DNA of 64,000 bases from Heptranchias perlo (Eukaryota), in the NCBI RefSeq assembly GCF_035084215.1, contig NW_027139247.1, forward strand, positions 372,001 through 436,000, written 5' to 3'. Below the pieces are notes generated by a model, which saw only the letters and a list, made by a program, of their open reading frames with translations, was not told the origin of the DNA and made no database searches. Positions 15,301 through 59,714 of this stretch are shown one piece after another. Position 1 is the first letter of the stretch, and each line of letters starts with the position of its first letter. The translations under genes were made by a program, and so were the position numbers.

Positions 15301-18300
15301 AGTGTAACCCGGTGTAAACACAAGGGACAGTCAGTGTAACTCAGTGTAAACACAAGGACAGTCAGTGTAACCCGGTGTAAACACAAGGGCAGTCAGTGTA
15401 ACCCAGTGTAAACACAAGGGACAGTCAGTGTAACCCAGTGTAAACACAAGGGACAGTCAGTGTAACCCGGAGTAAACACAAGGGCAGTCAGTGTAACCCA
15501 GTGTAAACACAAGGGACAGTCAGTGTAACCCGGTGTAAACACAAGGGACAGTCAGTGTAACCCGGAGTAAACACAAGGGCAGTCAGTATAACCCAGTGTA
15601 AACACAAGGGACAGTCAGTGTAACCCAGTGTAAACACAAGGGACAGTCAGTGTAACCCAGTGTAAACACAAGGGACAGTCAGTGTAACCCAGTGTAAACA
15701 CAAGGGACAGTCAGTGTAACCCGGTGTAAACACAAGGACAGTCAGTGTAACCCGGTGTAAACACAAGGGCAGTCAGTGTAACCCAGTGTAAACACAAGGG
15801 ACAGTCAGTGTAACCCGGTGTAAACACAAGGACAGTCAGTGTAACCCGGTGTAAACACAAGGGCAGTCAGTGTAACCCAGTGTAAACACAAGGGACAGTC
15901 AGTGTAACCCAGTGTAAACACAAGGGACAGTCAGTGTAACCCGGAGTAAACACAAGGGACAGTCAGTGTAACCCGGTGTAAACACAAGGGACAGTCAGTG
16001 TAACTCAGTGTAAACACAAGGGACAGTCAGTGTAACCCAGTGTAAACACAAGGGCAGTCAGTGTAACCCGGTGTAAACACAAGGGACAGTCAGTGTAACT
16101 CAGTGTAAACACAAGGGACAGTCAGTGTAACCCGGTGTAAACACAAGGGACAGTCAGTGTAACTCAGTGTAAACACAAGGGACAGTCAGTGTAACCCGGT
16201 GTAAACACAAGGGACAGTCAGTGTAACCCAGTGTAAACACAAGGGACAGTCAGTGTAACCCGGAGTAAACACAAGGGACAGTCAGTGTAACCCGGTGTAA
16301 ACACAAGGGACAGTCAGTGTAACTCAGTGTAAACACAAGGGACAGTCAGTGTAACCCGGAGTAAACACAAGGGACAGTCAGTGTAACCCGGTGTAAACAC
16401 AAGGGACAGTCAGTGTAACTCAGTGTAAACACAAGGGACAGTCAGTGTAACCCGGAGTAAACACAAGGGCAGTCAGTGTAACCCGGTGTAAACACAAGGG
16501 ACAGTCAGTGTAACTCAGTGTAAACACAAGGGACAGTCAGTGTAACCCGGTGTAAACACAAGGGACAGTCAGTGTAACTCAGTGTAAACACAAGGGACAG
16601 TCAGTGTAACCCGGTGCAAACACAAGGGACAGTCAGTGTAACCCGGTGTAAACACAAGGGACAATCAGTGTAACCCAGTGTAAACACAAGGGACAGTCAG
16701 TGTAACCCGGTGTAAACACAAGGACAGTCAGTGTAACCCGGAGTAAACACAAGGGACAGTCAGTGTAACCCAGTGTAAACACAAGGGACAGTCAGTGTAA
16801 CCCGGTGTAAACACAAGGTCAGTCAGTGTAACTCAGTGTAAACACAAGGGACAGTCAGTGTAACCCGGAGTAAACACAAGGGACAGTCAGTGTAACCCAG
16901 TGTAAACACAAGGGACAGTCAGTGTAACCCGGTGTAAACACAAGGGCAGTCAGTGTAACCCGGTGTAAACACAAGGGGCAGTCAGTGTAACCCGGAGTAA
17001 ACACAAGGGACAGTCAGTGTAACCCGGAGTAAACACAAGGGACAGTCAGTGTAACCCGGAGTAAACACAAGGGACAGTCAGTGTAACCCGGAGTAAACAC
17101 AAGGGACAGTCAGTGTAACCCGGAGTAAACACAAGGGACAGTCAGTGTAACCCGGAGTAAACACAAGGGACAGTCAGTGTAACCCAGTGTAAACACAAGG
17201 GCAGTCAGTGTAACCCAGTGTAAACACAAGGGACAGTCAGTGTAACCCAGTGTAAACACAAGGGACAGTCAGTGTAACCCGGAGTAAACACAAGGGACAG
17301 TCAGTGTAACTCAGTGTAAACACAAGGGACAGTCAGTGTAACTCAGTGTAAACACAAGGGACAGTCAGTGTAACCCAGAGTAAACACAAGGGACAGTGAG
17401 TGTAACCCAGAGTAAACACAAGGGACAGTCAGTGTAACCCGGAGTAAACACAAGGGACAGTCAGTGTAACCCAGTGTAAACACAAGGACAGTCAGTGTAA
17501 CCCGGTGTAAACACAAGAGACAGTCAGTGTAACCCGGTGTAAACACAAGGGGCAGTCAGTGTAACTCAGTGTAAACACAAGGGACAGTCAGTGTAACCCA
17601 GTGTAAACACAAGGGACAGTCAGTGTAACTCAGTGTAAACACAAGGGACAGTCAGTGTAACCCGGAGTAAACACAAGGGACAGTCAGTGTAACCCGGAGT
17701 AAACACAAGGGACAGTCAGTGTAACCCAGTGTAAACACAAGGGACAGTCAGTGTAACCCGGAGTAAACACAAGGGACAGTCAGTGTAACCCAGTGTAAAC
17801 ACAAGGGCAGTCAGTGTAACCCGGTGTAAACACAAGGACAGTCAGTGTAACTCAGTGTAAACACAAGGGCAGTCAGTGTAACCCGGAGTAAACACAAGGG
17901 ACAGTCAGTGTAACCCGGAGTAAACACAAGAGACAGTCAGTGTAACCCGGTGTAAACACAAGGGCAGTCAGTGTAACCCGGAGTAAACACAAGGGCAGTC
18001 AGTGTAACCCGGTGTAAACACAAGGGGCAGTCAGTGTAACCCGGTGTAAACACAAGGGGCAGTCAGTGTAACCCAGTGTAAACACAAGGGACAGTCAGTG
18101 TAACCCGGAGTAAACACAAGGGCAGTCAGTGTAACTCAGTGTAAACACAAGGGACAGTCAGTGTAACTCAGTGTAAACACAAGGGACAGTCAGTGTAACC
18201 CGGTGTAAACACAAGGGACAGTCAGTGTAACCCAGTGTAAACACAAGGGACAGTCAGTGTAACCCAGAGTAAACACAAGGGCAGTCAGTGTAACTCAGTG

Positions 18301-20485
18301 TAAACACAAGGGACAGTCAGTGTAACCCGGTGTAAACACAAGGGACAGTCAGTGTAACCCAGTGTAAACACAAGGGACAGTCACTGTAACCCAGAGTAAA
18401 CACAAGGGACAGTCAGTGTAACCCAGTGTAAACACAAGGGACAGTCAGTGTAACCCAGAGTAAACACAAGGGGCAGTCAGTGTAACCCGGTGTAAACACA
18501 AGGGACAGTCAGTGTAACCCGGAGTAAACACAAGGGACAGTCAGTGTAACTCAGTGTAAACACAAGGGACAGTCAGTGTAACTCAGTGTAAACACAAGGG
18601 ACAGTCAGTGTAACCCGGTGTAAACACAAGGGACAGTCAGTGTAACCCGGACTAAACACAAGGGACAGTCAGTGTAATCCGGACTAAACACAAGGGACAG
18701 TCAGTGTAACCCGGAGTAAACACAAGGGACAGTCAGTGTAACTCAGTGTAAACACACGGGACAATCAGTGTAACCCAGACTAAACATAAGGGCAGTCAGC
18801 GTTACCCGGATAAAACAAAAGGGCAATTCGTGTAACCTGGACTAAAAAAATGGGATAGTCCGCGTAAGATGGACAAAGCACAAGAGAAGCTAGGGTAACC
18901 CGGAATAAACACAGGGGCAATTAGTGTAGCCTGGAATAAACACAAGAGCAGTTAGTGTAACCTGGACTAAACAAGGGGCAATTAGTGTAATCTGGACTAA
19001 ACACAAGGGCAGTCAGCGTAATCCGGACTAAACACAAGGATAATTGGTGTAAACTGGACTAAACATAAGAGCAGTTAGTGTAAACCGGACTAAAGACAAG
19101 GGCAGTCAGTGTAACCCAGACTAAAGACAAGGGCAGTCAGTGTCACCCAGACTAAAGACAAGAGCAGTCAGTGTAACCCGGACTAAAGACAAGAGCAGTC
19201 AGTGGAACCCAGACTAAAGACAAGGGCAGTCAGTGTAACTCGGACTAAAGACAAGGGCAGTCAGTGTAACCCAGACTAAAGACAAGGGCAGTCAGTGTAA
19301 CCCGGACTAAAGACAAGGGCAGTTAGTGTAACCCGGACTAAAGACAAGGGCAGTCAGTGTAACCCGGACTAAAGACAAGGGCAGTCAGTGTAACCCAGAC
19401 TAAAGACAAGGGCAGTCAGTGTAACCCGGACTAAAGACAAGGGCAGTCAGTGTAACTCGGACTAAAGACAAGGGCAGTCAGTGTAACCCGGACTAAAGAC
19501 AAGGGCAGTCAGTGTAACTCGGACTAAAGACAAGAGCAGTCAGTGTAACCCAGACTAAAGACAAGGGCAGTCACTGCAACCCAGACTAAAGACAAGGGCA
19601 GTTACTGTAACCCGGACTAAAGACAAGAGCAGTTAGTGTAACCCGGACTAAAGACAAGGGCAGTCAGTGTAACCCGGACTAAAGACAAGGGCAGTTAGTG
19701 TAACCCGGACTAAAGACAAGGGCAGTTCGTGTAACCCGGACTAAAGACAAGGGCAGTCAGTGTAACCCGGACTAAAGACAAGGGCAGTCAGTGTAACCCG
19801 GACTAAAGACAAGGGCAGTTAGTGTAACCCGGACTAAAGACAAGGGCAGTTAGTGTAACCCGGACTAAAGACAAGGGCAGTCAGTGTAACCCGGACTAAA
19901 GACAAGGGCAGTTAGTGTAACCCAGACTAAAGACAAGGGCAGTCAGTGTAACCCAGACTAAAGACAAGGGCAGTCAGTGTAACCCAGACTGAAGACAAGG
20001 GCAGTCAGTGTAACCCAGACTAAAGACAAGGGCAGTCAGTGTAGCCCAGACTAAAGACAAGGGCAGTCAGTGTAGCCCAGACTAAAGACAAGGGCAGTCA
20101 CTGTAACCCAGACTAAAGACAAGGGCAGTCACTGTAACCCAGACTAAAGACAAGGGCAGTCACTGTAACCCAGACTAAAGACAAGGGCAGTCACTGTAAC
20201 CCAGACTAAAGACAAGGGCAGTCACTGTAACCCAGACTAAAGACAAGAGCAGTCACCGTAACTCGGACTAAAGACAAGGGCAGTCAGTGTAACTCAGACT
20301 AAAGACAAGAGCAGTCAGTGTAACTCGGACTAAAGACAAGGGCAGTCACCGTAACTCGGACTAAAGACAAGGGCAGTCACTGTAACCCAGACTGAAGACA
20401 AGGGCAGTCACTGTAACCCAGACTAAAGACAAGGGCAGTCACTGTAACCCAGACTAAAGACAAGGGCAGTCAGTGTAACCCGGAC
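9390..20485 (+). repeat. 31-32 bp minisatellite, array 1 (~350 units; consensus gggacagtcagtgtaacccggtgtaaacacaa)
   Basis: Direct tandem units with sub-domains: ...ggactaaacac (9.4-10.1 kb), ...gtgtaaacac/gagtaaacac (10.4-18.7 kb), ...gactaaagac (19.1-20.5 kb). Unit count estimated from length. Confidence 0.98.
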
Positions 20486-20486
20486 T

Positions 20487-21871
20487 GTCAGTTTAACCTC
20501 AGTGGTGGGGAAACTTTTAGAAACGACAATCCGGGACAGAATTAGCAGTCACTTGGACGAGTGTGGATTGATTAGGGAAAGCCAACACGGATTTGTTAAA
20601 GGCAAATCATGTTTAACCAACTTGACAGAGTTTTTTGATGAGGTAAAAGAGAGGGTAGATGAGGGCAATACAGTTGATGAGATGTATATTGATTTTCAAA
20701 AAGCGTTTGATAAAGTGCCGCACAGTAGGCTTACTATTAAGATTGCGGCCCATGGAATAAAGGGGGCAATAGCTACATGGATACAGAATTGGCTAAATGA
20801 CAGGAAACAGAGAGTAGTGGTGAACGGTTGTTTTTTGGACTGGAGGGAGGTGCACAGTGGTGTTCCCCAGAGGTCGGTGCTGGGACCACTGCTTTTCTTG
20901 ATATATATTAATGACTTGGACTTGGGAGTACAGGGCACAATTTCAAAATCTGTGGATGACACAAAACTTGGAAGGGTAGTGAACAGTGAGGAGGATAGTG
21001 ATAGACTTCAAAAGGATATAGACAGGCTGGTGGCATGGGCGGACACGTGGCAGATGAAGTTTAATGTGGAAAAATGCAAGGTGATGCATTTCGGTAGGAA
21101 AAATGAGGAGAGGCAATATAAACTAGAGGGCACAATTCTAAAAGGGGTGGGGGAACAATGGGATTTGGGGGTGTATGTGAATAAATCATTGAAGGTGGCA
21201 GGGCAGGTTGAGAAAGTGGTTAAAAAAGCATATGGGGTCTGGGACTTTATAAATAGAGGCATAGAGTACAAAAGCAAGGAAATCGTGATGAAACTTTATA
21301 AAATTACTGGTTTCGACACAACTGGAGTTTTGTGTCCAGTTCTGGGCACCACACTTTAGGAAGGATGTGAAGGCTTTTAAGAGGGCGCAGAGGAGATTTA
21401 CTAGAATGATCCAGGGATGAGGGACTTAAATTACGTGGATCGACTGAAGAAGCTGGGTTTGTTCTCCTTGGAACTGAGAAGTATGAGGAGATTTGATCGA
21501 GGTGTTTAAAAGCATGAAGGGTCTAGACAGAGTAAATAGAGAGTATCTGTTCCCATTGACGGAAGGGTCAAGAACCAGAGGACACAGATTGAAGGTGATT
21601 GGCAAAAGAACCAAAGGTGACATGAGGAAAAACTTTTTTTTACACAGTGAGTGGTTAGGATCTGGAATGCACTGCCCGAGGGGGTGGTGGAGGCAGATTC
21701 AATCATGGCCTTCAAAAGGGAACTGGATAAATACTTGAAATGAAATAATGTGCAGGGCTACGGGGATAGGGCGGGGGAGTGGGACTAGCTGGAGTGCTCA
21801 TGCGTAGAGATGGCTCAGGGACGATGGGCCGAATGGCCACCTTCCATGCTGTAACCTTGTATGATTCTATG
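20487..21871 (+). mobile_element. 5'-truncated CR1 LINE inserted in the minisatellite
   Basis: ORF 20502..21359 is an RT domain; tail atgattctatga; same subfamily as 54613-56490. Confidence 0.96.
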
Positions 21872-24800
21872 AACACAGGGTAGTTATTGTAACTGGGTCT
21901 AAATATGCGGGCAATTAGTGTAACCTAAACTAAACACAACGGCAGTCATTAAAACCCGAATAAACAAAAGGGCAGTTAGGGTAACCTGGACTAAACACAG
22001 GGGCAGTTAGGGTAACCTGGACTAAACACAGGCGCAGTTAGGGCAACCTGATCTAAACACAGGGGCAGTTAGGGTAACCTGGACTAAACACAAGGGCAGA
22101 TAGTGTAACCTGGACTAAACACAAGGGCAGTTAGGGTAACCTGGACTAAACACAGGGGCAGTTAGGGTAACCTGGACGAAACACAGGGGCAGTTAGGGTA
22201 ACCTGGACTAAACACAGGGGCAGAGAGGGTAACCTGGACTAAACACAAGGGCAGATAGGGTAACCTGGACTAAACACAGGGGCAGATAGGGTAACCTGGA
22301 CTAAACACAGGGGCAGATAGGGTAACCTGGACTAAACACAAGGGCAGTTAGGGTAACCTGGACTAAACACAAGGACAGTCAGTGTATCCCAGACTATTCA
22401 AAACCGCAGTTATTGTAATACGGACTAAACACAAGAGCAATTAGTGTAATCTGGACCGAACAAGAGGATAGTTAATGTAACTCAGACTAAACAAGGGGGG
22501 AAGTTAATGTAATCCGGACGAAACACAAGGGCTGTGATTGTAACCCGGACTAAACACAGGGGCAGTGAGAGTAACCTGGACGAAACACAGGGGCAGTTAG
22601 GGGAACCTGGACTAAACACAAGGGCAGTTAGGGTAACCTGGACTAAACACAGGGGCAGTTAGGGGAACCTGGACTAACCACAGGATCAGTTAGGGGAACC
22701 TGCACTAAACACAAGGGCAGTGAGGGTAACCTGGACTAAACACAAGGGCAGATAGGGGAACCTGGATGAAACAAAGGGACAGTTATGGTAACCTGGACTA
22801 AACACAGGGGCAGTTAATGTAACCTGGACTAAACACAGGGACAGTTATGGTAACCTGGACTAAACACAGGCACAGTTATGGTAACCTGGACTAAACACAG
22901 GGGCAGTTATGGTAACCTGGACTAAACACAGGGGCAGTTATGGTAATCTGGACTAAACACAGGGGCAGTTAGAGTAACCCGGAGTAAACACTGGGGCAGT
23001 TAGAGTAACCCGGACTAAACACAGGGGCAGTTAGAGTAACCTGGACTAAACACAGGGGCAGTTATGGTAACCTGGACTAAACACAGGGGCAGATAGAGTA
23101 ACCTGGACTAAACACAGGGGCAGTTAGAGTAACCCAGACTAAACACAGGGGCAGTTAGGGTAACCTGGACTAAACACAAGGACAGTCAGTGTATCCCAGA
23201 CTATTCAAAACCGCAGTAATTGTAATACGGACTAAACACAAGAGCAATTAGTGTAATCTGGACCGAACAAGAGGATAGTTAATGTAACTCAGACGAAACA
23301 AGGGGGGAAGTTAGAGTCACCCGGACTAAACACAAGGGCAGTTAGAGTAACCCAGACTAAACATAGGGTTAGTTAGGGGAACCTGGACTAAACACAAGGG
23401 CAGTTAGAGTAACCTGGACTAAACACAGGGGCAGTTAGAGTAACCCGGAGTAAACACAGGGGCAGATAGAGTAACCTGGACTAAACACAGGGGCAGTTAG
23501 AGTAACCTGGACGAAACACAGGGGCAGTGAGAGTAACCCGGAGTAAACACAAGGGGCAGTTAGAGTAACCAAGACTAAACACAGGGGCAGTTAGAGTAAC
23601 CCGGATTAAACACAGGGGCAGATAGAGTAACCCGGATTAAACACAGGGGCAGCTAGAGTAACCCGGACTAAACACAAGGGCAGTTAGAGGAACACGGACG
23701 AAACACAGGGTCAGTTAGAGTAACCTGGACTAAACACAAGGGCAGTGAGAGTAACCTGGACGAAACACAGGGGCAGTTAGAGTAACCTGGACTAAACACA
23801 GGGGCAGTGAGAGTAACCTGGAGTAAACACAAGGGGCAGTTAGAGGAACCAGGACTAAACACAGGGGCAGTTAGAGTAACCCGGAGTAAACACAGGGGCA
23901 GTTAGAGTAACCTGGACTGAACACAGGGGCAGTTAGTGTAACCTGGACTAAACACAGGGGCAGTTAGAGTAACCTGGACTAAACACAGGGGCAGTTAGTG
24001 TAACCTGGACTAAACGCAGGGGCAGTTAGTGTAACCTGGACTAAACACAGGGGCAGTTAGAGTAACCCGGACTAAACACAGGGGCAGTTAGAGTAACCCG
24101 GACTAAACACAGGGGCAGATAGAGTAACCCGGACTAAACACAGGGGCAGTTAGAGTAACCCGGACTGAACACAGGGGCAGTTAGAGTAACCTGGACTAAA
24201 CACAGGGGCTGTTAGAGTAACCTGCACTAAACACAGGGGCAGTTAGAGTAACCCGGACTAAACACAGGGTCAGTTAGAGTAACCCGGAGTAAACATAGGG
24301 GCAGTTCGAGTAACCCGGACTAAACACAGGGGCAGTTAGAGTAACCCGGAGTAAACACAGGGGCAGTTAGAGTAACCCGGAGTAAACACAGGGGCAGTTA
24401 GAGTAACCCGGAGTAAACACAGGGGCAGTTCGAGTAACCCGGACTAAACACAGGGGCAGTTAGAGAAACCCGGAGTAAACACAGGGGCAGTTAGAGTAAC
24501 CTGGACTAAACACAGGGGCAGTTAGAGTAACCCGGAGTAAACACAGGGGCAGTTAGAGTAACCCGGACTAAACACAGGGGCAGTTAGTGTAACCCGGACT
24601 AAACACAGGGGCAGTTAGGGTAACCCGGACTAAACACAGGGGCAGTTATGGTAAACAGGACTAAACACAGGGGCAGTTAGTGTAACCTGGACGAAACACA
24701 GGGGCAGTTAGTGTAACCTGGACTAAACACAGGGGCAGTTAGTGTAACCTGGACTAAACACAGGGGCAGTTAGTGTAACCTGGACTAAACACAGGGGCAG

Positions 24801-26778
24801 TTAGTGTAATCTGGACTAAACACAGGGGCAGTTATGGTAACCTGGACTAAACACAGGGGCAGTAAGGGGAACCTGGACTAAACACAAGGACAGTCAGTGC
24901 ATCCCAGACTATTCAAAACCGCAGATATTATAATACGGACGAAACACAAGAGTAATTAGTGTAATCTGGACCGAACAAGAGGATAGTTAATGTAACTCAG
25001 ACTAAACAAGGGGGGAAGTTAGTGTAACCCGGACGAAACACAGGGGAAGTTTGAGTAACCTGGACTAAACACAGCGGCAGTTAGAGTAACCTCGACTAAA
25101 CACATGGGCAGTTAGAGCAACCTGGACGAAACACAGGGGCAGTGAGAGTAACCTGGACTAAACACAGGGGAGTTAGAGTAACCTGGACTAAACACAAGGG
25201 CAATTATGGTAACCTGGACTAAACACAGGGGCAGTTGGAGTAACCTGGACGAAACACAGGGCAGTTAGAGTAACCTGGACTAAACACAGGGCAGTTAGAG
25301 TAACCCGGACTAAACACAGGGCAGTTAGAGTAACCTGGACTAAACACAGGGCAGTTAGAGTAACCCGGACTAAACACAGGGGCAGTTAGAGTAACCTGGA
25401 CGAAACACAGGGGCAGTTGGAGTAACCTGGACGAAACACAGGGGCAGTTAGAGTAACCTGGACTAAACACAGGGGCAGTTAGAGTAACCTGGACTAAACA
25501 CAGGGGCAGTTAGAGTAACCTGGACTAAACACAGGGGCAGTTAGAGTAACCTGGACTAAACACAGGGGCAGTTAGAGTAACCTGGACTAAACACAGGGGC
25601 AGTTAGAGTAACCTGGACTAAACACAGGGGCAGTTAGGGTAACCTGGACTAAGCACAAGGGCAGTTAGGGTAACCTGGACTAAACACAGGGGCAGTTAGG
25701 GTAACCTGGACTAAACACAGGGGCAGTTAGAGTAACTTGGACTAAACACAGGGGCAGTTAGTGTAACCTGGACTAAACACAGGGACAGTTAGAGTAACCT
25801 GGACTAAACACAGGGGCAGTTAGAGTAACCCGGAGTAAACACAGGGGCAGTTATGGTAACTGGAACAAACACAGGGGCAGTTAGTGTAACCCGGACTAAA
25901 CACAGGGGCAGTTAGTGGAACCTGGACTAAACACAGGGGCAGTTAGTGGAACCTGGACTAAACACAGGGGCAGTTAGTGGAACCTGGACTAAACATAGGG
26001 GCAGTTAGTGTAACCTGGACTAAACACAGGGGCAGTTAGTGGAACCTGGACTAAACACAGGGGCAGTTAGTGTAACCTGGACTAAACACAGGGGCAGTTA
26101 GTGGAACCTGGACTAAACATAGGGGCAGTTAGTGTAACCTGGACTAAACACAGGGGCAGTTAGTGTAACCTGGACTAAACACAGGGGCAGTTAGTGGAAC
26201 CTGGACTAAACACAGGGGCAGTTAGTGGAACCTGGACTAAACACAGGGGCAGTTAGTGGAACCTGGACTAAACACAGGGGCAGTTAGTGTAACCTGGACT
26301 AAACACAGGGGCAGTTAGTGGAACCTGGACTAAACACAGGGGCAGTTAGGGTAACCTGGACTAAACACAGGGGCAGTTAGTGTAACCTGGACTAAACACA
26401 GGGGCAGTTCGGGAAACCTGGACTAAACACAGGGGCAGTTAGTGTAACCTGGACTAAACACAGGGGCAGTTAGGGTAACCTGGACTAAACACAGGGGCAG
26501 TTCGGGAAACCTGGACTAAACACAGGGGCAGTTAGGGTAACCTGGACTAAACATAGGGGCAGTTAGCGGAACCTGGACTAAACACAGGGGCAGTTAGGGT
26601 AACCTGGACTAAACATAGGGGCAGTTAGCGGAACCTGGACTAAACACAGGGGCAGTTAGGGTAACCTGGACTAAACACAGGGGCAGTTAGGGTAACCTGG
26701 ACTAAACACAGGGGCAGTTCGGGAAACCCGAACCAAACACGGGGACATTGAGTGTAACCTTGACTAAACACGGGGATA
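21872..26778 (+). repeat. 31-bp minisatellite, array 2 (~155 units; ggggcagttagagtaacctggactaaacaca)
   Basis: Variant of the array-1 unit; contains a degenerate cassette repeated three times. Confidence 0.97.
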
Positions 26779-26864: not shown

Positions 26865-26916
26865 CAGAAGCCACTCCTTGAACAAAATAAAAGCTCAGTA
26901 AAACAAATAGGAACAT
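26865..26916 (-). CDS. Signal-peptide (leader) exon, copy 1, MFLFVLLSFYFVQGVAS+G; putative MHC class I-like / Ig-superfamily immune gene
   Basis: ATG TTC CTA TTT GTT TTA CTG AGC TTT TAT TTT GTT CAA GGA GTG GCT TCT G|gtaagtc: 17 mostly hydrophobic codons, V-A-S cleavage-like end, consensus phase-1 donor, paralog at 54128-54179. Family assignment is inference. Confidence 0.8.
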
Positions 26917-26949: not shown

Positions 26950-27222
26950 ATCGAGGACGGGAAGACTTGGTAAATCTTTAATCCCCTCCCACATTATTCT
27001 GCTTATCTCGTTCAGTGAAACTCATTCTATCCAATGAGAATGAAATCACCAGCCCTCAGTCGGGAGGGAGAATCTCCGGGACTATTCCCGGCATTAGGAA
27101 CTGCGGGCACAATCAGATTACCAAAGATCACACTGGTCAATGGCAAGGGTTTAACGGGAAGGTATTACAACTGGAAGAAAATGGAGACACAGATTGAAAG
27201 CAATAGCGGGAATATTTCCCAC
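26950..27222 (-). promoter_or_regulatory. Putative promoter of leader exon 1
   Basis: Inverted CCAAT (TCATTGG; CCAAT at 27031-27035) 115 bp upstream of the ATG; IRF-like GAGAATGAAAT and AGTGAAACT; kB-like palindromes gggactattccc and gggaatatttccc. Motifs are short and imperfect. Confidence 0.5.
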
Positions 27223-28776: not shown

Positions 28777-30309
28777 CACTGACTGCCCCCATGTTTACTC
28801 CAGGTTACACGAACAGCCACTGTGTTTACTCCGGGTTACACTAACAGCCCCCATGTTTACTCCAGGTTACACTAACAGCCACTGTGTTTACTCCGGGTTA
28901 CACTAACAGCCACTGTGTTTACTCCAGGTTAAACTAACAGCCACTGTGTTTACTCCGGGTTACACTAACAGCCCCTGTGTTTACTCCAGGTTACACTAAC
29001 AGCCCCTGTGTTTACTCCAGGTTACACTAACAGCCCCTGTGTTTACTCCAGGTTAAACTAACAGCCACTGTGTTTACTCCGGGTTACACTAACAGCCACT
29101 GTGTTTACTCCGGGTTACACTAACAGCCACTGTGTTTACTCCGGGTTACACTAACAGCCACTGTGTTTACTCCGGGTTACACTAACAGCCACTGTGTTTA
29201 CTCCGGGTTACACTAACAGCCACTGTGTTTACTCCGGGTTACACTAACAGCCACTGTGTTTACTCCGGGTTACACTAACAGCCACTGTGTTTACTCCGGG
29301 TTACACTAACAGCCACTGTGTTTACTCTGGGTTACACTAACAGCCACTGTGTTTACTCCGGGTTACACTAACAGCCCCTGTGTTTGCTCCGGGTTACACT
29401 AACAGCCACTGTGTTTACTCCGGGTTACACTAACAGCCACTGTGTTTACTCCGGGTTACACTAACAGCCACTGTGTTTACTCCGGGTTACACTAACAGCC
29501 ACTGTGTTTACTCCGGGTTACACTAACAGCCACTGCGCTTACTCCAGGTTACACTAACAGCCACTGTGTTTACTCCGGGTTACACTAACAGCCACTGTGT
29601 TTACTCCGGGTTACAATAACAGCCACTGTGTTTACTCCGGGTTACACTAACAGCCACTGTGTTTACTCCGGGTTACACTAACAGCCACTGTGTTTACTCC
29701 GGGTTAAGCTAACTGCCCTTGTGTTTACTCCGGGTTAAGCTAACTGCCCTTGTGTTTACTCTGGGTTAAGCTAACTGCCCTTGTGTTTACTCCGGGTTAA
29801 GCTAACTGCCCTTGTGTTTACTCCGGGTTACGCTAACTGCCCTTGTGTTTACTCCGGGTTACGCTAACTGCCCTTGTGTTTACTCCGGGTTACGCTAACT
29901 GCCCTTGTGTTTACTCCGGGTTACGCTAACTGCCCTTGTGTTTACTCTGGGTTATGCTAACTGCCCTTGTGTTTAGTCTGGGTTTCACTAACTGGGCTTT
30001 TGTTTAGTCCGGGTTACACTGACTGTCCCTTGTGTTTAGTCCGGATTACACGAACTGCTCATGTTTATTCCAGGTTACACTAATTGCCCTATTGTTTAGT
30101 CCTGGTTACACCGACTCCTCTTGTGTTGCACTAACTAACCCTGTATTTAGTCCAGGTTACACTAACTGCGCCTATGTTGTGTCCAGTTTACTCTAATTAA
30201 CCTTTTGTTTAGTCTGGGTTACGCTGACTGCCCTTGTCTTTATCTGGGATACAAGAACTGCCCTTGTGTTTACTCTCGGTTACACCAACTAACCGCGTGT
30301 TTTGTCCGA
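28777..30309 (-). repeat. 31-bp minisatellite, array 3, inverted relative to arrays 1 and 2 (~49 units)
   Basis: Unit gtgtttactccgggttacactaacagccact is the reverse complement of the same family. Confidence 0.96.
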
Positions 30310-38327: not shown

Positions 38328-39431
38328 GATATATTCTTGATTGAAAAGTACTCTGAAATATTTCAGTCTCGCCATCTAAAATGACATTAACAAATCACAA
38401 TTCTATAGCATTTTATATAGTATGGATTCAATTAGGAAATCTGTCAGTTAAATCTAGTTTCTCAACCTGAAAAAAAACTAGCTTTAAATTGTGCTGGTAT
38501 CTGAGAGCAAAACCTGTTTCCCATTCAGGCATTGAGATATTTTGGAACACCCTGCTACATTTGCAGAAACAGGAGATGGGATTGTTCAATGTAGCCTCGG
38601 CCTCACCACTCGGGCGCGGGAAGTGAGAACTACACCAACATCACACCCCCCACCCCCCCAACAAAAAAGTGGTCACTGCCCAATTTCTAGCCCTATATCT
38701 TATGCCAAAAGGCAAAACTGAGTAGCATTGCTTACTGGTGCAGGCCGGCACGGCACATCAGGACATTGTACACCATTATCCCATTATTCTTTGATCATTC
38801 ATGCTAATGGTAGGAAAAATAACGGACTGAGGGTGCATAATGTCGTAATATTCAGTTTGGTGATTCAGAAGCACTGAAGTGAGAAATTCCTGCCATATTT
38901 CACTGTAGCAGTGACCACTAGGGTCGATGAAAGCAAATAAACCCACATTGCAACCATTGATCTCCATCCCATGACTTTGAAGGGTGAACGTGTGAGTAGC
39001 AGCTGAGTATAGTATCAGTCTGGCCTGTGATGATTCCAGGAGTGAACTGCCCGTAGACACACTGCTGGATAGTTGACCAGAATAGCGCAAGTGACTGGGG
39101 GTAATTTTGTATTGTCTGTAATTCGAATCCTACTACAATGTACACTGTATGTCGGAAAACACAAAGATGAACACAACGTATTGTACAAAGATGAACTTAT
39201 ACCATCATCATCATAGGATTTGGCTTTTGAGGTAGCAGGGGCATTGGACTCCCCGCAACTTGTGGCAAATATTATTGGGTTATCTCCCTGTCTTTCTGCA
39301 GAAACAAACATCTTTTTACTCATTTAATGGTTGTGTGTCAGAAAAAAAATTACGAAGGGGATTCCCCCCGTTATTATACAGTCTAACCCTTTCGTTGGTT
39401 TCGAGGAAATGAAGCAGCTTGGAGGACATTC

Positions 39432-41597: not shown

Positions 41598-41816
41598 TGG
41601 AGATGCCGGTGATGGACTGGGGTTGACAATTGTAAACAATTTTACAACACCAAGTTATAGTCCAGCAATTTTATTTTAAATTCACAAGCTTTCGGAGGCT
41701 ACCTCCTTCCTCAGATTTTCCGCATCGTTCACCTGAGGAAGGAGGTAGCCTCCGAAAGCTTGTGAATTTAAAATAAAATTGCTGGACTATAACTTGGTGT
41801 TGTAAAATTGTTTACA
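41598..41816. mobile_element. Penelope-like element terminal (pLTR) hairpin fragment
   Basis: Perfect ~86-bp inverted arms (41629-41714 / 41733-41818), 12-bp TSD atcagcaaagtg (41586-41597, 41817-41828) and a hammerhead core; related fragment at 53821-53860. Confidence 0.85.
41728..41766 (+). ncRNA. Minimal type I hammerhead ribozyme motif
   Basis: Stem I uucac/gugaa; core CUGAGGA; stem II ggagg-uag-ccucc; GAAA; palindromic AAGCUU in place of stem III; predicted cleavage after CUU (41761). Confidence 0.75.
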
Positions 41817-43261
41817 ATCAGCAAAGTGATGGAAGGTGTCGTCGACAGTGCTATCAAGCGGCACTTACTCACCAATAACCTGCTCACCGATGCTCAGTTT
41901 GGGTTCCGCCAGGACCACTCGGCTCCAGACCTCATTACAGCCTTGGCCCAAACACAGACAAAAGAGCTGAATTCCAGAGGTGAGGTGAGAGTGACTGCCC
42001 TTGACATCAAGGCAGCATTTGACCGAGTGTGGCACTAAGGAGCCCAAGTAAAATTGAAGTCAATGGGAATCAGGGGGAAAACTCTCCAGTAGCTGGAGTC
42101 ATACCTAGCACAAAGGAAGATGGTAGTGGTTGTTGGAGGCCAATCATCTCAGCCCCAGGACATTGCTGCAGGAGTTCCTTAGGGCAGTGTCTTAGGCCCA
42201 ACCATCTTCAGCTGCTCATCAATGACCTTCCCTCCATCATAAGGTCAGAAATGGGGATGTTCGCTGATGATTGCACAGTGTTCAGTTCCATTCGCAACCC
42301 CTCAGATAATGAAGCAGTCCGAGCCCGCATGCAGCAAGACCTGGACAACATCCAGGTTCTGGTTGATAAGTGACAAGTAACATTCGCACCAGACAAGTGC
42401 CAGGCAATGACCATCTCCAACAAGAGAGAGTCTAACCACCTCCCCTTGACATTCAATGGCATTACCATCACTGAACCCCTACCATCAACATCCTGGGGGT
42501 CGCCATTGACCAGAAACTTAACTGGGCCAGTCACATAAATACTGTGGCTACAAGAGCAGGTCAGAGGCTGGGTATTCTGCGGCGAGTGACTCACCTCCTG
42601 ACTCCCCCAAAGACTTTCCACCATCTACAAGGCACAAGTCAGGAGTGTGATGGAATACTCTCCACTTCCCTGGATGAGTGCAGCTCCAACAACACTCAAG
42701 AAGCTCAACACCATCCAGGACAACGCAGCACACTTGATTGGCACCCCATCCACCACCCTAAACATTCACTCCCTTCACCACCGGCACACCGTGGCTGCAG
42801 TGTGTACCATCCACAGGATGCACTGCAGCAACTCGCCAAGGCTTCTTCGACAGCACCTCCCAAATCCACGACCCCTACCAGATAAAGGGACAAGGGCTGT
42901 AGGCACATGGGAACAACACCACCTGCACGTTCCCCTCCAAGTCATACACCATCCCGACTTGGAAATATATCGCCGTTCCTTCATTGTCGCTGGGTCAAAA
43001 TCCTGGAACTTCCTTCCTAACAGCACTGTGGGAGAACCTTCACCACAAGGACTGCAGCGGTTCAAGAAGGCGGCTCACCACCACCTTCTCAAGGGCAACT
43101 AGGGATGGGCAATAAATGCCGGACTCGCCAGCGACGCCCACATCCCATGAACGAATAAGAAAAAAACTAAAGGTAAGTGCTCAGGCCCAAGAATTCAGCC
43201 ATAAAGCTGTTGATAGGACAAAGAGGCAACAAGAGAAACGGTAACCTGTCTTTTCGCTTCC

Positions 43262-51198: not shown

Positions 51199-51932
51199 NN
51201 NNNNNNNNNNNNNNNNNNNNNNNNNNNNNNNNNNNNNNNNNNNNNNNNNNNNNNNNNNNNNNNNNNNNNNNNNNNNNNNNNNNNNNNNNNNNNNNNNNNN
51301 NNNNNNNNNNNNNNNNNNNNNNNNNNNNNNNNNNNNNNNNNNNNNNNNNNNNNNNNNNNNNNNNNNNNNNNNNNNNNNNNNNNNNNNNNNNNNNNNNNNN
51401 NNNNNNNNNNNNNNNNNNNNNNNNNNNNNNNNNNNNNNNNNNNNNNNNNNNNNNNNNNNNNNNNNNNNNNNNNNNNNNNNNNNNNNNNNNNNNNNNNNNN
51501 NNNNNNNNNNNNNNNNNNNNNNNNNNNNNNNNNNNNNNNNNNNNNNNNNNNNNNNNNNNNNNNNNNNNNNNNNNNNNNNNNNNNNNNNNNNNNNNNNNNN
51601 NNNNNNNNNNNNNNNNNNNNNNNNNNNNNNNNNNNNNNNNNNNNNNNNNNNNNNNNNNNNNNNNNNNNNNNNNNNNNNNNNNNNNNNNNNNNNNNNNNNN
51701 NNNNNNNNNNNNNNNNNNNNNNNNNNNNNNNNNNNNNNNNNNNNNNNNNNNNNNNNNNNNNNNNNNNNNNNNNNNNNNNNNNNNNNNNNNNNNNNNNNNN
51801 NNNNNNNNNNNNNNNNNNNNNNNNNNNNNNNNNNNNNNNNNNNNNNNNNNNNNNNNNNNNNNNNNNNNNNNNNNNNNNNNNNNNNNNNNNNNNNNNNNNN
51901 NNNNNNNNNNNNNNNNNNNNNNNNNNNNNNNN
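51199..51932. other. Assembly gap (734 N)
   Basis: Run of N. Confidence 1.
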
Positions 51933-52275: not shown

Positions 52276-52319
52276 ATTTTTGGGTTTGCTTATCTCAATA
52301 TGCGACAGAATGAACCCTT

Positions 52320-53483
52320 AACACATGGATGTGAAATCACCCTGTGGGACAATATGAACATTTAACACATAGATTTGAAATCACTCTGTGGGACAATATG
52401 AACCTTTAACACTGATATGAAATCACTCTGTGGGAAAATATGAACATTTAACACTGATATGAAATCACTCTGTGGGGCAGAATGAACATTTAACACTGAT
52501 ATGAAATCACCCTGTGGGGCAGAATGAACCTTTAACACTGATATGAAATCACTCTGTGGGACAATATGAACCTTTAACACTGATATGAAATCACTCTGTG
52601 GGACAATACGAACATTGAACACTGATATCAAATCACTCTGTGGGACAATATGAACATTTAACACTGATATGAAATCACTCTGTGGGACAATATGAACATT
52701 TAACACTGATATCAAATCACTCTGTGGGACAATATGAACATTTAACACTGATATGAAATCACTCTGTGGGACAATATGAACATTTAACACTGATATGAAA
52801 TCACTCTGTGGGACAATATGAACATTTAACACTGATATCAAATCACTCTGTGGGACAATATGAACCTTTAACACTGATATGAAATCACTCTGTGGGACAA
52901 TATGAACATTTAACACTGATATCAAATCACTCTGTGGGACAGAATGAACCTTTAACACTGATATGAAATCACTCTGTGGGACAATATGAACATTTAACAC
53001 TGATATCAAATCACTCTGTGGGGCAATATGAACATTTAACACTGATATGAAATCACTCTGTGGGGCAGAATGAACCTTTAACACTGATATGAAATCACTC
53101 TGTGGGACAATATGAACCTTTAACACTGATATGAAATCACTCTGTGGGACAATATGAACATTTAACACTGATATGAAATCACTCTGTGGGGCAGAATGAA
53201 CCTTTAACACTGATATGAAATCACTCTGTGGGACAATATGAACCTTTAACACTGATATGAAATCACTCTGTGGGACAATATGAACATTTAACACTGATAT
53301 GAAATCACTCTGTGGGACAATATGAACATTTAACACTGATATGAAATCACCCTGTGGGGCAGAATGAACATTTAACACTGATATCAAATCACTCTGTGGG
53401 ACAGAATGAACCTTTAACACACTGATATGAAATCACTCTGTGGGTCAGTATGAACACTTAACATACTGTTATGTAATCACTCT
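52320..53483. repeat. 42-bp VNTR (aacactgatatgaaatcactctgtgggacaatatgaacattt) x~27
   Basis: Tandem units; the 352-aa minus ORF is its 14-aa translation. Confidence 0.97.
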
Positions 53484-54127
53484 GCTTGGCGGGAGGAATC
53501 GTCAATGCACCGATATTAAGTTATCTCTGGCATAATTCGAACCCTTAAAGCTCTTGTGTGCTTATTTTAAGGAAAGCATTAACACTTTAAATTGAAACAG
53601 TTTCCTGTTTTTGTTCAATTCGAGGAAGAAACTCTGAATCGAGGAACTAAGTGAAAATGCTGTCCCATTGATTAGAAGACTTCCTGTTCAGAATTTATGA
53701 GGTTACAAACCCCACGACGTCCTCTTTGACCAAATTATTTCTGGATTGTAGAACTTCCGTTTCTCAAACCTTTTACCTGGAGTTTACTTTCCTCTGGCAA
53801 AGGCACTGCCTTCATATTTCTTGTAAACAATTTTACAACACCAAGTTATAGTCCAACAATTTTTTTTTCATTCATATTTTTTCATTCATATTTCTTGAGG
53901 GCTTCTTTTTAATGCCGTTGTTTACATCGGTTAAGCAGAGGGACAAAGTGACACACAGATGAATTTGCACAGACCTACGAGGCAGTGCCCTACCAGAGAA
54001 AGTTAAACCCCGAGATGGGGAGAGTAGAGCAGAGCAGACAACTTTGCGGTCTCGAATTTGTTTCTGGCCCCAGCAATTGTCTCTCACAACTGGAATAATA
54101 GATTTGTGATTATGCAAATAGACTTAC

Positions 54128-54179
54128 CAGATTCAACTCTCTGAAATCGGTAAAAGCTGAGCAAAGCGAAGAGAAACAT
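54128..54179 (-). CDS. Signal-peptide (leader) exon, copy 2, MFLFALLSFYRFQRVES+G; putative MHC class I-like / Ig-superfamily immune gene
   Basis: ATG TTT CTC TTC GCT TTG CTC AGC TTT TAC CGA TTT CAG AGA GTT GAA TCT G|gtaagtc; good Kozak (acaaaATG); same length, phase and donor as 26865-26916. Confidence 0.8.
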
Positions 54180-54269
54180 TTTGTGGTCTTCCTACAGACA
54201 GAACACACGACCGACTGTGGGAGCAGATATCTTATTACGTTGCTGAAATGATTCAGTACGAGTCACACT

Positions 54270-54332
54270 AACCAATGATAGGGGAACGGCGGAGTTCGTC
54301 ATTAGTTGGTGGAAGTGACCCTGAGTCCTGCA
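54270..54332 (-). promoter_or_regulatory. MHC-type S/X1/X2/Y-like promoter module
   Basis: Minus strand GGACTC-AGGGTCACTTCCACCAACTAA-TGACG-(20 nt)-ATTGG; the Y box lies 93 bp upstream of the ATG. Confidence 0.65.
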
Positions 54333-54612
54333 ATCCTGGAGAGAGAGTTTAACACATGCACTGTCTGAGTCAGAGACTGTCACCTCAAGATCAAACTTCA
54401 TGAAAAGGCACAAGTGGGAAATGTGAGATTATGGGCTGTGTAGGTGCCATCAATGAAGTGAAATTCTTCATGAGCCTTACCCATAGCATGTCTCCCATCC
54501 CAAAACAATTCAATCCGAAACAGTCAGACTTCTCAATTGTTAAATATTTAAGAGTAATGGGCGCAATCGGCAAGTTGGGCGCAAATTCGCTTGAAATTTA
54601 ATTAATTAGGTT

Positions 54613-56490
54613 ATAGAATCATAGGATTATAGAAAGGTTACAGCATAGAAGGAGGCCATTCTGCCCATCAAGTCCACGCCAGCTCTATGCAAGAGCAATC
54701 CAGCTAGTCCCACTCCCCCGCCCTTTCCCCGTAGCCCTGCACATTTTTTTGTTTCAAGTATTTATCCAATTCCCTTTTGAAGGCCATTATTGAATCTGCC
54801 TCCACCACCCCCCTCGGGCAGTGCATTCCAGATCCTAACCACTCGCTGTGTAAAAAAGTTTTTCCTCGTGTCACCTTTGGTTCTTTTGCCAATCACCTTA
54901 AATCTATGCCCTCTGGTTCTTGACCCTTCTGCCAATGGGAACAGTTACTCTCTATCCACTCTGTCTACACCCTTCATGATTTTGAACACGTCTATCACAT
55001 CTCCTTCCAAGGAGAACAACCCCAGCTTCTCCAGTCTATCCCCATAAATTAAGTCCCTCACCCCTGGAATCATTCTCGTAAATCTCCTCTGCACCCTTTC
55101 TAAGGCCTTCACATCCTTCATAAAGTGCAGTGCCCAGAACTGGACACCATACTCCAGTTATGGCTGAACCAGTGTTTTATAAAGGTTCATCATGACTTCC
55201 TTGCTTTTGTACTCTATGCCTCTATTTATAAAGCCCAGGACCCCGTATGCTTTTTTAATTGCTTTCTCAACCTGCCCTGCCACCTTCAACGATTTGTTCA
55301 CATACACCCCCAAATCCCTCTGTTCCTCCACCCCTTTTAGAATTGTGCCCTCTAGTTTATATTGCCTCTCCTCATTTTTCCTACCAAAATCCATCACCTC
55401 GCATTTTTCCGCGTTAAACTTCATCTGCCACGTGTCCGCCCATGCCACCAGAGTGTCTATATCCTCTTGAAGTCTATCACTATCCTCCTCACTGTTCACT
55501 ACCCTTCCAAGTTTTGTGTCATCCACAAATTTTGAAATTGTGCCATGTACTCCCAAGTCCAAGTCATTAATATATATCAAGAAAAGCAGTGGTCCCAGCA
55601 CTGACCCCCGGGGAACACCACTGTGCACCTCCCTCCAGTCCAAAAAATAACCGCTCACCACTACTCTCTGTTTCCTGCCATTTAGCCAATTCTGTATCCA
55701 TGTTGCTGCTACCCCTTTTATTCCATGGGCCGCAATCTTAAGAGGAAGCCTACCATGTGGCACTTTAACAAACGCTTTTTGAAAATCTATATGCACCACA
55801 TCAACCACATTGCCCTCATCTATCCTCTCTGTTACCTCATCAAAAAACTCTATCAAGTTGGTTAAACACAATTTGCCTTTAACAAATCCGTGCTGGCTTT
55901 CCCTAATCAATCCACACTCGTCCAAGTGACTGTTAATTCTGACCCGGATTATCGTTTCTAAAAGTTTCCCCACCACTGAGGTTAAACTGACTGACCTGTA
56001 GTTGCTGGGTTTATCCTTACACCCTTTTTTGAACAAGGATGTAACATTTGCAATTCTCCAGTCTCTTAGCACCACCCCTGTATCTAAGAATGCCTGGAAG
56101 ATTATGAACAGTACCTCTGCAATTTCCACCCTTACTTCCCTCAGCATCCTAGGATGCATCCCATCCATACCAGGTGACTTATCTATTTTAAGTACAGCTA
56201 ACCTTTCTAGTACCTCTTCTTTCTCAATGTTTAGCCCATACAGTATCTTAACTATATCTTTCTTTACTGAGACTCTGGCAGCATCTTTTTCCTTGGTAAT
56301 GACCGGTGCAAAGTACTCATTTAATACCTCAGCCATCCCCTCTGCCTCCATGAGTAGATCTGCTTTATGTTCCCTAATCGGCCCCACCCCTCCTCTTAGT
56401 ACCCGTTTACTGTTAACATGGCTGTAGAAGACTTTTGGATTCCCTTTTATGTTGGGCGCTAGTCTATTCTCATACTCTCTCTTTGCCCTT
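54613..56490 (-). mobile_element. 5'-truncated CR1 LINE
   Basis: ORF 55158..56387 is an RT domain; tail antisense atagaatcatag. Confidence 0.97.
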
Positions 56491-56494
56491 CAAG

Positions 56495-57170
56495 TTATAC
56501 TTCAAGTTTCCGCTTAAAGGTATTTGCATAATCTCAAACGCATTTGCATAATCACAAACGTGAAATCTTCCATGAACCAGCCAAATCGGTCAGAGCAATA
56601 CAACGTAACCGTTTAGTTTTTTCTTCTTTGCATTAGAAAATATTCCTTGATGTATTTAAGAGTTTTATTAATGCAGCTGAAAATGGGTTCATCATAAAAA
56701 AATGGACATTTTTAATAAGTGTCCAGTCCTCCACCTGTGAGTAAACCAGATTTAAAATCCCTGAAAATGACTTAAAAAAAACTACACTGAACAATTTAGT
56801 AATGTCATTGGTGCTCACGAGTCAGTTTCTTAATTAATTAAATATTTTTAAATCTATAAAAACGTGTAAAACGTGCCTACTAGGGCCTGTGCACCTCAGA
56901 AAATGAGCTTAATTTGACGATCTTCCTCGAACGGCCACAACCAGGTGCAATCGGCAGAAACTCGTTATTTCAAATGGGGGCGTGGCCAGTTTTGTGGGCG
57001 GGACTAGCTTCGGGCGCAATGATTTTTCAACCAGCGCTAATTGCAGAAACTTGATTTATCCTTGACGTAAATTACGCTTGATTTTCCACAATTTTTTGCG
57101 CTGGTTCAGCTGGATTGCGCTGTTAAAACCAGCGCACTGTCGCGAATGCTCTACCCCTCCCCACCCCGCC
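56495..57170. mobile_element. Probable MITE remnant, apparently continued at ~54555-54612 across the CR1
   Basis: CpG-rich gggcgcaat/ttgcgc motifs on both sides of the CR1. Boundaries uncertain. Confidence 0.4.
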
Positions 57171-57379: not shown

Positions 57380-58968
57380 CTGGGTGTGAGTTAGGGCTGG
57401 GCGTGGGTTAGGGTTAGGGTTAGTGTCAAGGTTAGGGTTCGGACCGGGTGTGGGTTAGGATTGAGTGTGGGTAGGTATGACTCTGGGTGAAGTACCTCTG
57501 GTTTGTTGATGGAAGTTGTGGTGCATTAGGGCTAGGACTGGGTGTAAGTTAGGGTTAGGACTGGGTATGGGATAGTGATAGGACTGGGTATGGGTTAGGG
57601 TTACGATTGGGTGTGGGGTATTGAGTTCCTCAGGGCAGTGTCCTAGGCCCAACCATCTTCAGCTGCTTCATCAATGACCTTCCCTCCATCATAAGGTCAG
57701 AAATGGGGATGTTCGCTGATTATTGCACAGTGTTCAGTTCCATTTGCAACCCGTCAGATAATGAAGCAGTCCGAGCCCGCATGCAGCAAGACCTGGACGA
57801 CATCCAGGCTTGGGCTGATAAGTGGCAAGTAACATTTGCACCAGACAAGTGCCAGGCAATGACCATCTCCAAATAGAGAGAGTCAAACCACCTCCCCTTG
57901 ACATTCAACGCCATTACCATCATCAAATTTTTTTTGATTCGTTCATGGGATGTGGGCGTCGCTGGCGAGGCCGGCATTTATTGCCACATCCCTAATTGCC
58001 CTTCAGAAGGTGGTGGTGAGCCACCTTCTTCAACTGTTGCAGTCCGTGTGGTGAAGGTTCTCCCACAGTGCTGTTAGGAAGGGAGTTCCAGGATTTTGAC
58101 CCAGCAACAATGGGTCAAAATCCTGGGGGTCACCATTGACCAGAAACTTAACTGGATCAGCCATATAAATACCGTGGCTAAAAGAGCAGTTCAGAGGCTG
58201 GGTATTCCGTGGCGAGTGACTCACCTCCTGACTCCCCAAAGCCTTTCCACCATCTACAAGGCACAAGTCAGGAGTGTGATGGAATACTCTCCACTTGTCT
58301 GGATGAGTGCAGCTCCAACAGCACTCAAGAAGCTCGACACCATCCAGGACAAAACTGCCCACTTGATTGGCATCCCATCCACCACCCTAAACATTCACTC
58401 CCTTCACCACCGGCACACTGTGGCTGCAGTGTGTACCATCCACAGGATGCACTGCAGCAACTTGCCAAGGCTTCTTCGACAGCACCTCCCAAACCCGCGA
58501 CTTCTACCACCTAGATGGACAAGGGCAGCAGGCACATGGAAACACCACCACCTGCACATTCCCCTCCAAGTTACACACCATTCCGATTTGGAAATATGTC
58601 GCTGTTCCTTCATCGTCGCTGGGTCAAAATCCTGGAATTCCCTTCCTAACAGCACTGTGGGAAAACCTTCACCACACTGACTGCAGCGATTCAAGAAGGC
58701 AGCTCACCACCACCTTCTCAAAGGCAATTTGGGATGGGCAATAAATGCCGGCCTTGCCATCGACGCCCACATCCCATGAACGAATTTTTAAAAAGGATTA
58801 GGATTGGGTGTGTGTTAGGTTTAAGTTTAGGGTTAGGATTAGGTTTATGGTTAGGGTGAAGGTTTGTGTTAGGGTTGGAGTTAGGATTGGGGTTAGGGTT
58901 GGTGTTAGATTTAGGGTTAGGGCTAGTGTTAGGGTTGTGGTTAGTTTTAGGGCTGGGTATGGGTAGGT
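57380..58968 (+). repeat. Degenerate (TTAGGG)-like hexamer tract split by a LINE (57380-57622 and 58797-58968)
   Basis: gggttagggttagggttag and variants on both flanks of the LINE. Confidence 0.8.
57624..58793 (+). mobile_element. CR1-group LINE (second lineage) with an internal inverted copy of its own 3' end (57925-58110)
   Basis: Plus-strand RT, then a T-tract and antisense 3' end, then plus-strand continuation (ORF 58096..58680). Confidence 0.9.
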
Positions 58969-59714
58969 ATGCTTCTGGGTGAATTGCCTATCATTAATTG
59001 ATGAAAGTTGAGGTGCCTGTGATGTTGCATTCTGCAGTTTAGCAAATAAAATGTAAAATGTCCAGGTCTGATCAAAAGGTTTTTTATTAATGTTTGTATT
59101 ACTTTCTTGAATGTTGCGCTGGGTAATGCAACACTTCCCTATTTCGGCACCCAGCAGGTCAACAACAGCGGGGCTCGATACATGGGTCCACCCACACTGC
59201 CCCAAGAATGTGTCTCAGTCACAAGATCAGAAGTGATCGACCAGTGTGGTATTTTTCACTTCCTTTACATTTTTCACAAGCCATTCTACGGGCCAATCTG
59301 ACATTAAACCTATCGGTGCAATAAAAACACAAACTTCAAAAGTAGAAATTATGATATTATTAATTTTGTACCAATGTTGAGCAAGCTGCACCTGGGCCCA
59401 CATTAATGGAGAACAGGGTACAAATTGCCCAAACACAATTTTCCAAAGATAATTAACAGCGAAGGGATGGATAAAATGTTCATACCATTCTTCAAGTTTG
59501 GTGTTGATCTCGCGTCCCAGAGTGACAGGTCAATTTCCAATCAGTCTCTTCCACCTCACCCCATTCCTCACACAAAAAGACTGCATCGCAAAAGCCTTAT
59601 GGCTTTCGGTCAAGAAGGCCAAGTAAAAGTCCTGCTGGATACCACCTACTGAATAACCCCTTCTCCTTTAACTGACGAATGAGTGCTGCTCCACATTGAA
59701 CAAAATATTCCAGG

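Follow-up and report, generated by a model that had tools for sequence, protein, structure and literature searches.

The model of an MHC promoter enhanceosome built from RFX, CREB/ATF1 and NF-Y comes from mammalian work (PMC7573153, PMC7281430). The S-X1-X2-Y (SXY) module is established in eutherians and in opossum, where some of the class I genes examined showed no such module (PMC1351924). In mouse, the S box is essential for transactivation by NLRC5 and sets NLRC5 specificity, the X boxes are interchangeable, and spacing is one determinant of NLRC5 occupancy. Our mouse reference sequences are the H2-K and H2-Eb reporter primers printed in the methods of PMC4374748. Counted by eye from these primers, class I H2-K reads TGACG, 20 nt and ATTGG, class II H2-Eb reads TGATG, 19 nt and ATTGG, and both carry an S box ending in ACCT 16 nt before X.

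W/S, X2 and Y boxes have also been reported from teleost class I promoters (PMC7573153, PMC1971071, PMC6523485), and because a review already terms the module conserved across vertebrates (PMC7281430), a shark module is to be expected and is not surprising. The site alpha core of salmon UBA is TGACGC (PMC1971071). In a salmon cell line, the interferon induction of MHC genes appeared to run through IRF1/STAT1 rather than through the enhanceosome, and the same appeared to hold in the zebrafish work cited there (PMC7573153). Among elasmobranch class I genes, UEA and UBA occur as multicopy clusters and UDA as a single gene, and class Ia-like genes are found close to the classical one as well (PMC10751288); UFA and UGA are CD1-like (PMC12562908). 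Orthologues of both CIITA and NLRC5 are present in whale shark (PMC8455134). Among the literature matches listed, none dealt with a class I promoter from a shark, which does not establish the absence of such a study from print, and PMC2846915 yielded no promoter passage.

Here we analyze a 64,000-nucleotide stretch of the Heptranchias perlo genome (the window; all coordinates are window positions). It contains what is probably the proximal promoter of a likely non-classical class I gene, in which an X1-X2-Y module forms a predicted platform for RFX, CREB/ATF1 and NF-Y.

The spliced leader exon and the class I-like sequence after it

The signal-peptide exon downstream of the module, which we call leader 2, spans 54128..54179 on the minus strand and is defined by its open reading frame (ORF) and by contigs of all four public runs examined. 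It comprises 17 codons plus one nucleotide (phase 1) and encodes MFLFALLSFYRFQRVES, hydrophobic in its first half, followed by a G before the splice donor GTAAGT (54122..54127, minus strand). The runs stem from one sample in one study and hold 0.05-0.08 of 75 words of the region; that they are RNA is a guess, none being recorded as such. Compared with 53550-54600, each run gave one contig, with 0 differences, that left the genome at exactly 54128, and the loose contig ends at this position in runs X1 and X2 show the donor in use. The contig of run X1 (3,191 nt) matches 54128-54238 and that of run X2 (3,180 nt) matches 54128-54209, while those of runs X3 and X4 (991 and 735 nt) both match 54128-54204. 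A separate phase-1 signal-peptide exon with a used donor, as in a class I gene, is therefore present.

By the run X1 contig, the transcribed 5' leader (54180..54238, minus strand) measures 59 nt or more and has no upstream ATG. The transcript extends to 54238 or beyond, a point 34 nt downstream of the Y box, and contigs cannot show a start. Except for a 48-nt repeat, the promoter and intron had no contig cover in 53550-54600, which says nothing on the start site. These 48 nt (53821-53868) are a piece of a transcribed repeat of very high abundance, of which two further copies lie at 41630-41817.

Past 54128, the contigs of runs X1 and X2 continue with the same 30 letters, which translate on the minus strand, in the leader frame, to ESHSLLFYYT. 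The supplement of PMC4364491 gives the corresponding class I sequences as GSHSLRYFYT in elephant shark, GTHSLRYFYN in spiny dogfish and GSHSMRYFFT in HLA-A2. Six of the ten residues are identical to the elephant-shark class I alpha1 start, in keeping with the pattern of the N-terminal alpha1 strand, and the register is fixed because residues match on both sides. Position 7 is Phe in place of Tyr7, one of eight peptide-end anchors conserved in classical molecules (PMC4364491). At this position, the one of the eight within reach, the gene thus departs from classical class Ia (UAA); a similar Tyr to Phe change, Y171F, still permits peptide binding (PMC4364491). Judged from these ten residues, the gene very probably belongs to the class I family. 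It is also quite probably non-classical, a reading that follows from the change of Tyr7 to Phe, one mild substitution in ten residues.

The first-pass annotation of this DNA had proposed an MHC class I-like gene of a possibly non-classical lineage. The exon that follows the donor agrees with the first part of this proposal, since it reads as a class I alpha1 start, and the Phe at position 7 fits the second. In its alpha1 start, its changed classical anchor and its nearby paralogous leader (see below), the locus is like the elasmobranch UBA, UDA, UEA, UFA and UGA lineages (PMC10751288, PMC12562908), a likeness drawn from ten residues and published descriptions. We also considered an immunoglobulin or T-cell receptor V gene and rejected it, as a V exon does not follow and the sequence after the donor resembles class I. 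Searched as a profile, the two leader ORFs found 2 matches among 1.84 billion proteins, both unrelated repetitive proteins, and the Atlas search returned no usable match. Both leader signal peptides (54179-54128 and 26916-26865) resemble salmonid L-lineage class I leaders with their FLFVLSFY-type core.

The X1-X2-Y module

Reading along the minus strand, GGGTCACTTCC starts at 54321 and is followed by TGACG (54301-54297), a spacer of 20 nt (54277..54296), ATTGG (54276-54272) and the ATG of leader 2 at 54179. The end of ATTGG lies 93 bp from the ATG (54272 - 54179), so that motif, spacing and distance are as the first-pass annotation had described them. TGACG, a CRE half-site, is the X2 box or site alpha and a predicted CREB/ATF1 site, identical to the 5-mer of H2-K. 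The inverted CCAAT that follows at the fixed distance (20 nt in H2-K and 19 nt in H2-Eb) is the Y box and a predicted NF-Y site.

TGACG-N20-ATTGG occurs once in the window. Shuffled windows contained it in 7 of 100 cases, and 0.08 occurrences per window are expected by chance; the bare X2-Y pair is therefore not significant alone and is suggestive only, and its weight rests on context. As a background, we also generated 30 Mb of sequence from a third-order Markov model of the window. The exact pair appeared there 19 times, or 0.63 times per Mb per strand, which corresponds to roughly 1.3e-4 for each 200 nt on one strand. A relaxed composite of TGAYG, 18-22 nt and ATTGG appeared 431 times.

The 12 nt that directly precede TGACG (54302..54313, minus strand) lie in register with X2 and form an X1 box, a predicted RFX site. 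They are identical to the X1 of class II H2-Eb at 8 of 12 positions and to that of class I H2-K at 6 of 12; with the adjoining TGA included, the match to H2-Eb is 11/15. Among the 431 relaxed background composites, 40 reached an X1 score of 6/12, 11 reached 7/12 and none reached 8/12, and none of the 19 exact composites reached 6/12. The cut-off of 8 in this comparison is the observed value, picked afterwards, and the references are the two mouse modules only. The X1 match is an independent check on the module, because the mouse H2-K and H2-Eb references had not been used in the first-pass annotation. As to the background frequency, which that annotation had left to be estimated, the bare pair turns up in 7/100 shuffles, and a relaxed pair with an X1 of at least 8/12 did not arise (0/431).

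An ETS-type core at 54311..54317 (minus strand) had been named in the first-pass annotation. It shares only the first 3 nt of X1 and has 26 copies in the window, and we reject it as the X1 box; X1 is instead the RFX-type 12-mer at 54313-54302, nearer to that of class II H2-Eb.

Comparison with the described modules gives a mixed picture. The mouse H2-K module, an NLRC5 target, has TGACG, the 20-nt spacer and the inverted CCAAT in common with the shark promoter, whereas the S box at 16 nt is lacking in the shark, X1 is less like H2-K than like class II, and an ISRE-like element that adjoins S in H2-K stands about 140 nt from X1. The mouse H2-Eb module, a CIITA target, shares the Y box and the closer X1 match, but it has TGATG, a 19-nt spacer and an S box, and it drives a class II gene. 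Compared by description, the salmonid UBA promoters (PMC1971071, PMC7573153) are alike in having site alpha/X2 and a Y box (enhancer B) upstream of a class I leader; they differ in that a W/S box and an ISRE are reported for them and in that they serve classical teleost genes, the shark gene being likely non-classical. The conservation of geometry between shark and mammal suggested by the first-pass annotation is thus supported for X2 and for the 20-nt spacer, as in mouse H2-K, and is not supported for the S box; X1 is nearer to class II.

The S box and other upstream elements

The expected place of the S box, 16 nt before X1 (54330..54337, minus strand), is without S-like sequence, and a search for the S-box core ACCT found none within about 100 nt upstream of X1. 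The nearest look-alike is GGACT at 54328-54324, 10 nt before X1 rather than 16. Because an S (W) box 16 nt before X is absent, we class the element as an X1-X2-Y module and not as a complete SXY. Of the spaced S-X1-X2-Y module that had been proposed, X1, X2 and Y at fixed spacing are upheld, and the S box at its 16-nt spacing is not.

About 140 nt upstream of X1 lies a weak IRF-element or ISRE-like 9-mer (54455..54463, minus strand), identical to one inside the H2-K forward primer; its 8-mer core occurs four times in the window. No match to a TATA box, a kappa-B site or a strict GAS element was found in 54100-54610. A CR1-like LINE (54619-56500) is inserted about 300 nt upstream of X1, which limits the unique promoter to about 370 nt. 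Its reverse transcriptase ORF (55161-56489) has its three best named relatives, among the 120 listed of 306 matches, in a catshark (57%), in a ray (52%) and in a carpet shark (62%), which by way of a mobile element points to a cartilaginous fish as the likely host. A 90% identical copy of this LINE lies inside a satellite at 20487-21872. An octamer-containing 17-mer is found just inside intron 1 (54103-54119, minus strand) and appears again, in inverted orientation, within a two-copy 20-mer that lies 2.4 kb upstream (56522-56560, plus strand); the octamer itself has only 3 copies in the window.

A paralogous leader and the place of exon 2

A second predicted signal-peptide exon, leader 1, lies on the same strand 27 kb downstream of leader 2 (26865..26916, minus strand; ATG at 26916, donor after 26865). 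It has the same length and phase, and 36 of 52 nt are identical to leader 2. Its promoter has a Y box (27031..27035, minus strand) without TGACG or an X1 match in register; the best X1/X2 match there is 6/15 over spacers of 17-23. Around the Y box the two promoters agree at 22 of 34 nt, and over the 40 nt upstream at only 10 of 40. TGAGG stands 18 nt before this Y box and recalls the trout X2-like box (PMC1971071). As the paralogous promoter is without X1 and X2, the module is not conserved within the window. The leader-1 promoter has two palindromes, one kappa-B-like near 27077 and one GAS-like at 27011-27019, which suggest that its regulation may differ from that of leader 2. A 17-kb satellite of 31-mers (9390-26771) begins about 90 nt beyond the donor of leader 1. 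On the upstream side, at 28792-30306, there is an inverted array of this family, so that opposed satellite arrays flank leader 1.

A search of the window that tolerated up to 3 mismatches did not find the 30-nt start of exon 2 seen in the contigs. Pfam scans of ORFs of at least 32 aa from non-repeat segments (147 of 159 on the minus strand and 141 of 161 on the plus strand, the ORFs omitted being those judged repeat-derived or low-complexity) detected no MHC or Ig C1 domain, and neither did a scan of all 145 minus-strand ORFs of at least 55 aa downstream of the donor. Seven class I motifs, scanned for in six frames, turned up two isolated SHSL matches with no class I context. Two exon-like ORFs (38921-39196 and 59230-59529) were set aside as unrelated to each other and to Pfam. 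Intron 1 contains an assembly gap of 734 N (51199..51932), which may hide exon 2 or mark a mis-join. The lack of exon 2 and of MHC/Ig C1 domains means that intron 1 exceeds 54 kb, that exon 2 lies in the gap, or that the scaffold is mis-joined.

The two leaders may be tandem paralogues, with one gene body lost at the gap; alternative first exons of a single gene are a somewhat doubtful reading, and an orphan or silent leader 1 is equally so. Contigs run unbroken across the leader-2 junction in 4/4 runs, a weak hint that, in this sample, leader 1 is not joined to the same exon at a similar level. A 42-mer minisatellite of 28 copies (52310-53484) adjoins the gap; one of its minus-strand frames is open for 356 codons, with Pfam matches that are all sub-threshold. 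Degenerate TTAGGG-like interstitial arrays occur at 57380-57624 and 58807-58957.

Discussion

By analogy with mammals, RFX on X1, CREB/ATF1 on X2 and NF-Y on Y would assemble at fixed spacing, and the assembled platform would recruit an NLR co-activator, either NLRC5 or CIITA. The upstream IRF-like element may add some interferon induction. If such docking occurs, CIITA appears at least as likely a partner as NLRC5, given the absent S box and the class II-like X1, and we lean slightly towards CIITA. Class I identity here derives from the ten residues, the non-classical assignment from the change of Tyr7 to Phe, and factor binding from mammalian work. The module reading draws on donor use in 4/4 runs, the class I-like start, X1 in register, the H2-K-type X2 and spacer, and the Y box kept in the paralogue. 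Against it stand the absent S box, the occurrence of the pair in 7/100 shuffles, the paralogue without X1 and X2, the salmon and zebrafish data, and the reliance on ten residues and one sample.

Some of these points would also suit an ordinary class I promoter with a CRE and a CCAAT box (and ETS and IRF sites), in which the X-Y geometry is a relic and NF-Y works with CREB or IRF1 without RFX or an NLR co-activator. Besides the absent S box and a leader-1 promoter that retained Y alone, such a promoter would agree with the teleost data that cast doubt on enhanceosome use (PMC7573153) and with the missing or degraded SXY of some non-classical opossum genes (PMC1351924). We regard it as unlikely, since an X1 in exact register, matched by none of 431 background composites, would be hard to retain without selection, and the 20-nt spacer is the same as in H2-K.

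The resemblance of X1 to H2-Eb rather than H2-K could instead mean that the gene encodes a W-category or class II-type chain, the more so as W-category alpha1 is homologous to class I alpha1 (PMC8713811). The N-terminal pattern agrees with class I chains at 6/10, however, shark W genes occur in head-to-head pairs (PMC8713811), and no opposite-strand MHC domain was found among the 141 plus-strand ORFs scanned, so that this is very improbable. A chance meeting of short motifs beside an unrelated exon could draw on the shuffling result and on a background of about 0.63 bare pairs per Mb per strand. It is largely refuted already, and we give it hardly any credence, given the independent X1 match and the position of the motifs, which lie on the correct strand and in the correct place ahead of a leader exon that is in use and runs on into class I-like sequence. 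The X1-X2-Y platform of a class I gene remains our preferred and rather likely reading.

A further and distinctly speculative idea, which we think improbable as a whole, is that this shark non-classical class I gene keeps an ancestral, unspecialised switch (a class II-type X1, a class I-type X2 and spacing, and no S box) that answers to CIITA or to both co-activators, the promoter split between NLRC5 and CIITA having come later via the S box. The same gene might also choose, for one distant alpha1 exon, between leader 2 with its full X1-X2-Y module and leader 1, 27 kb away, which has Y alone.

Cartilaginous fish are the oldest living group with an MHC. If the module reported here is what it appears to be, the enhanceosome platform would have existed in the ancestor of jawed vertebrates, one step further back than the teleost promoters indicate, and this 60-nt element would offer a way to ask when NLRC5 and CIITA split their targets.
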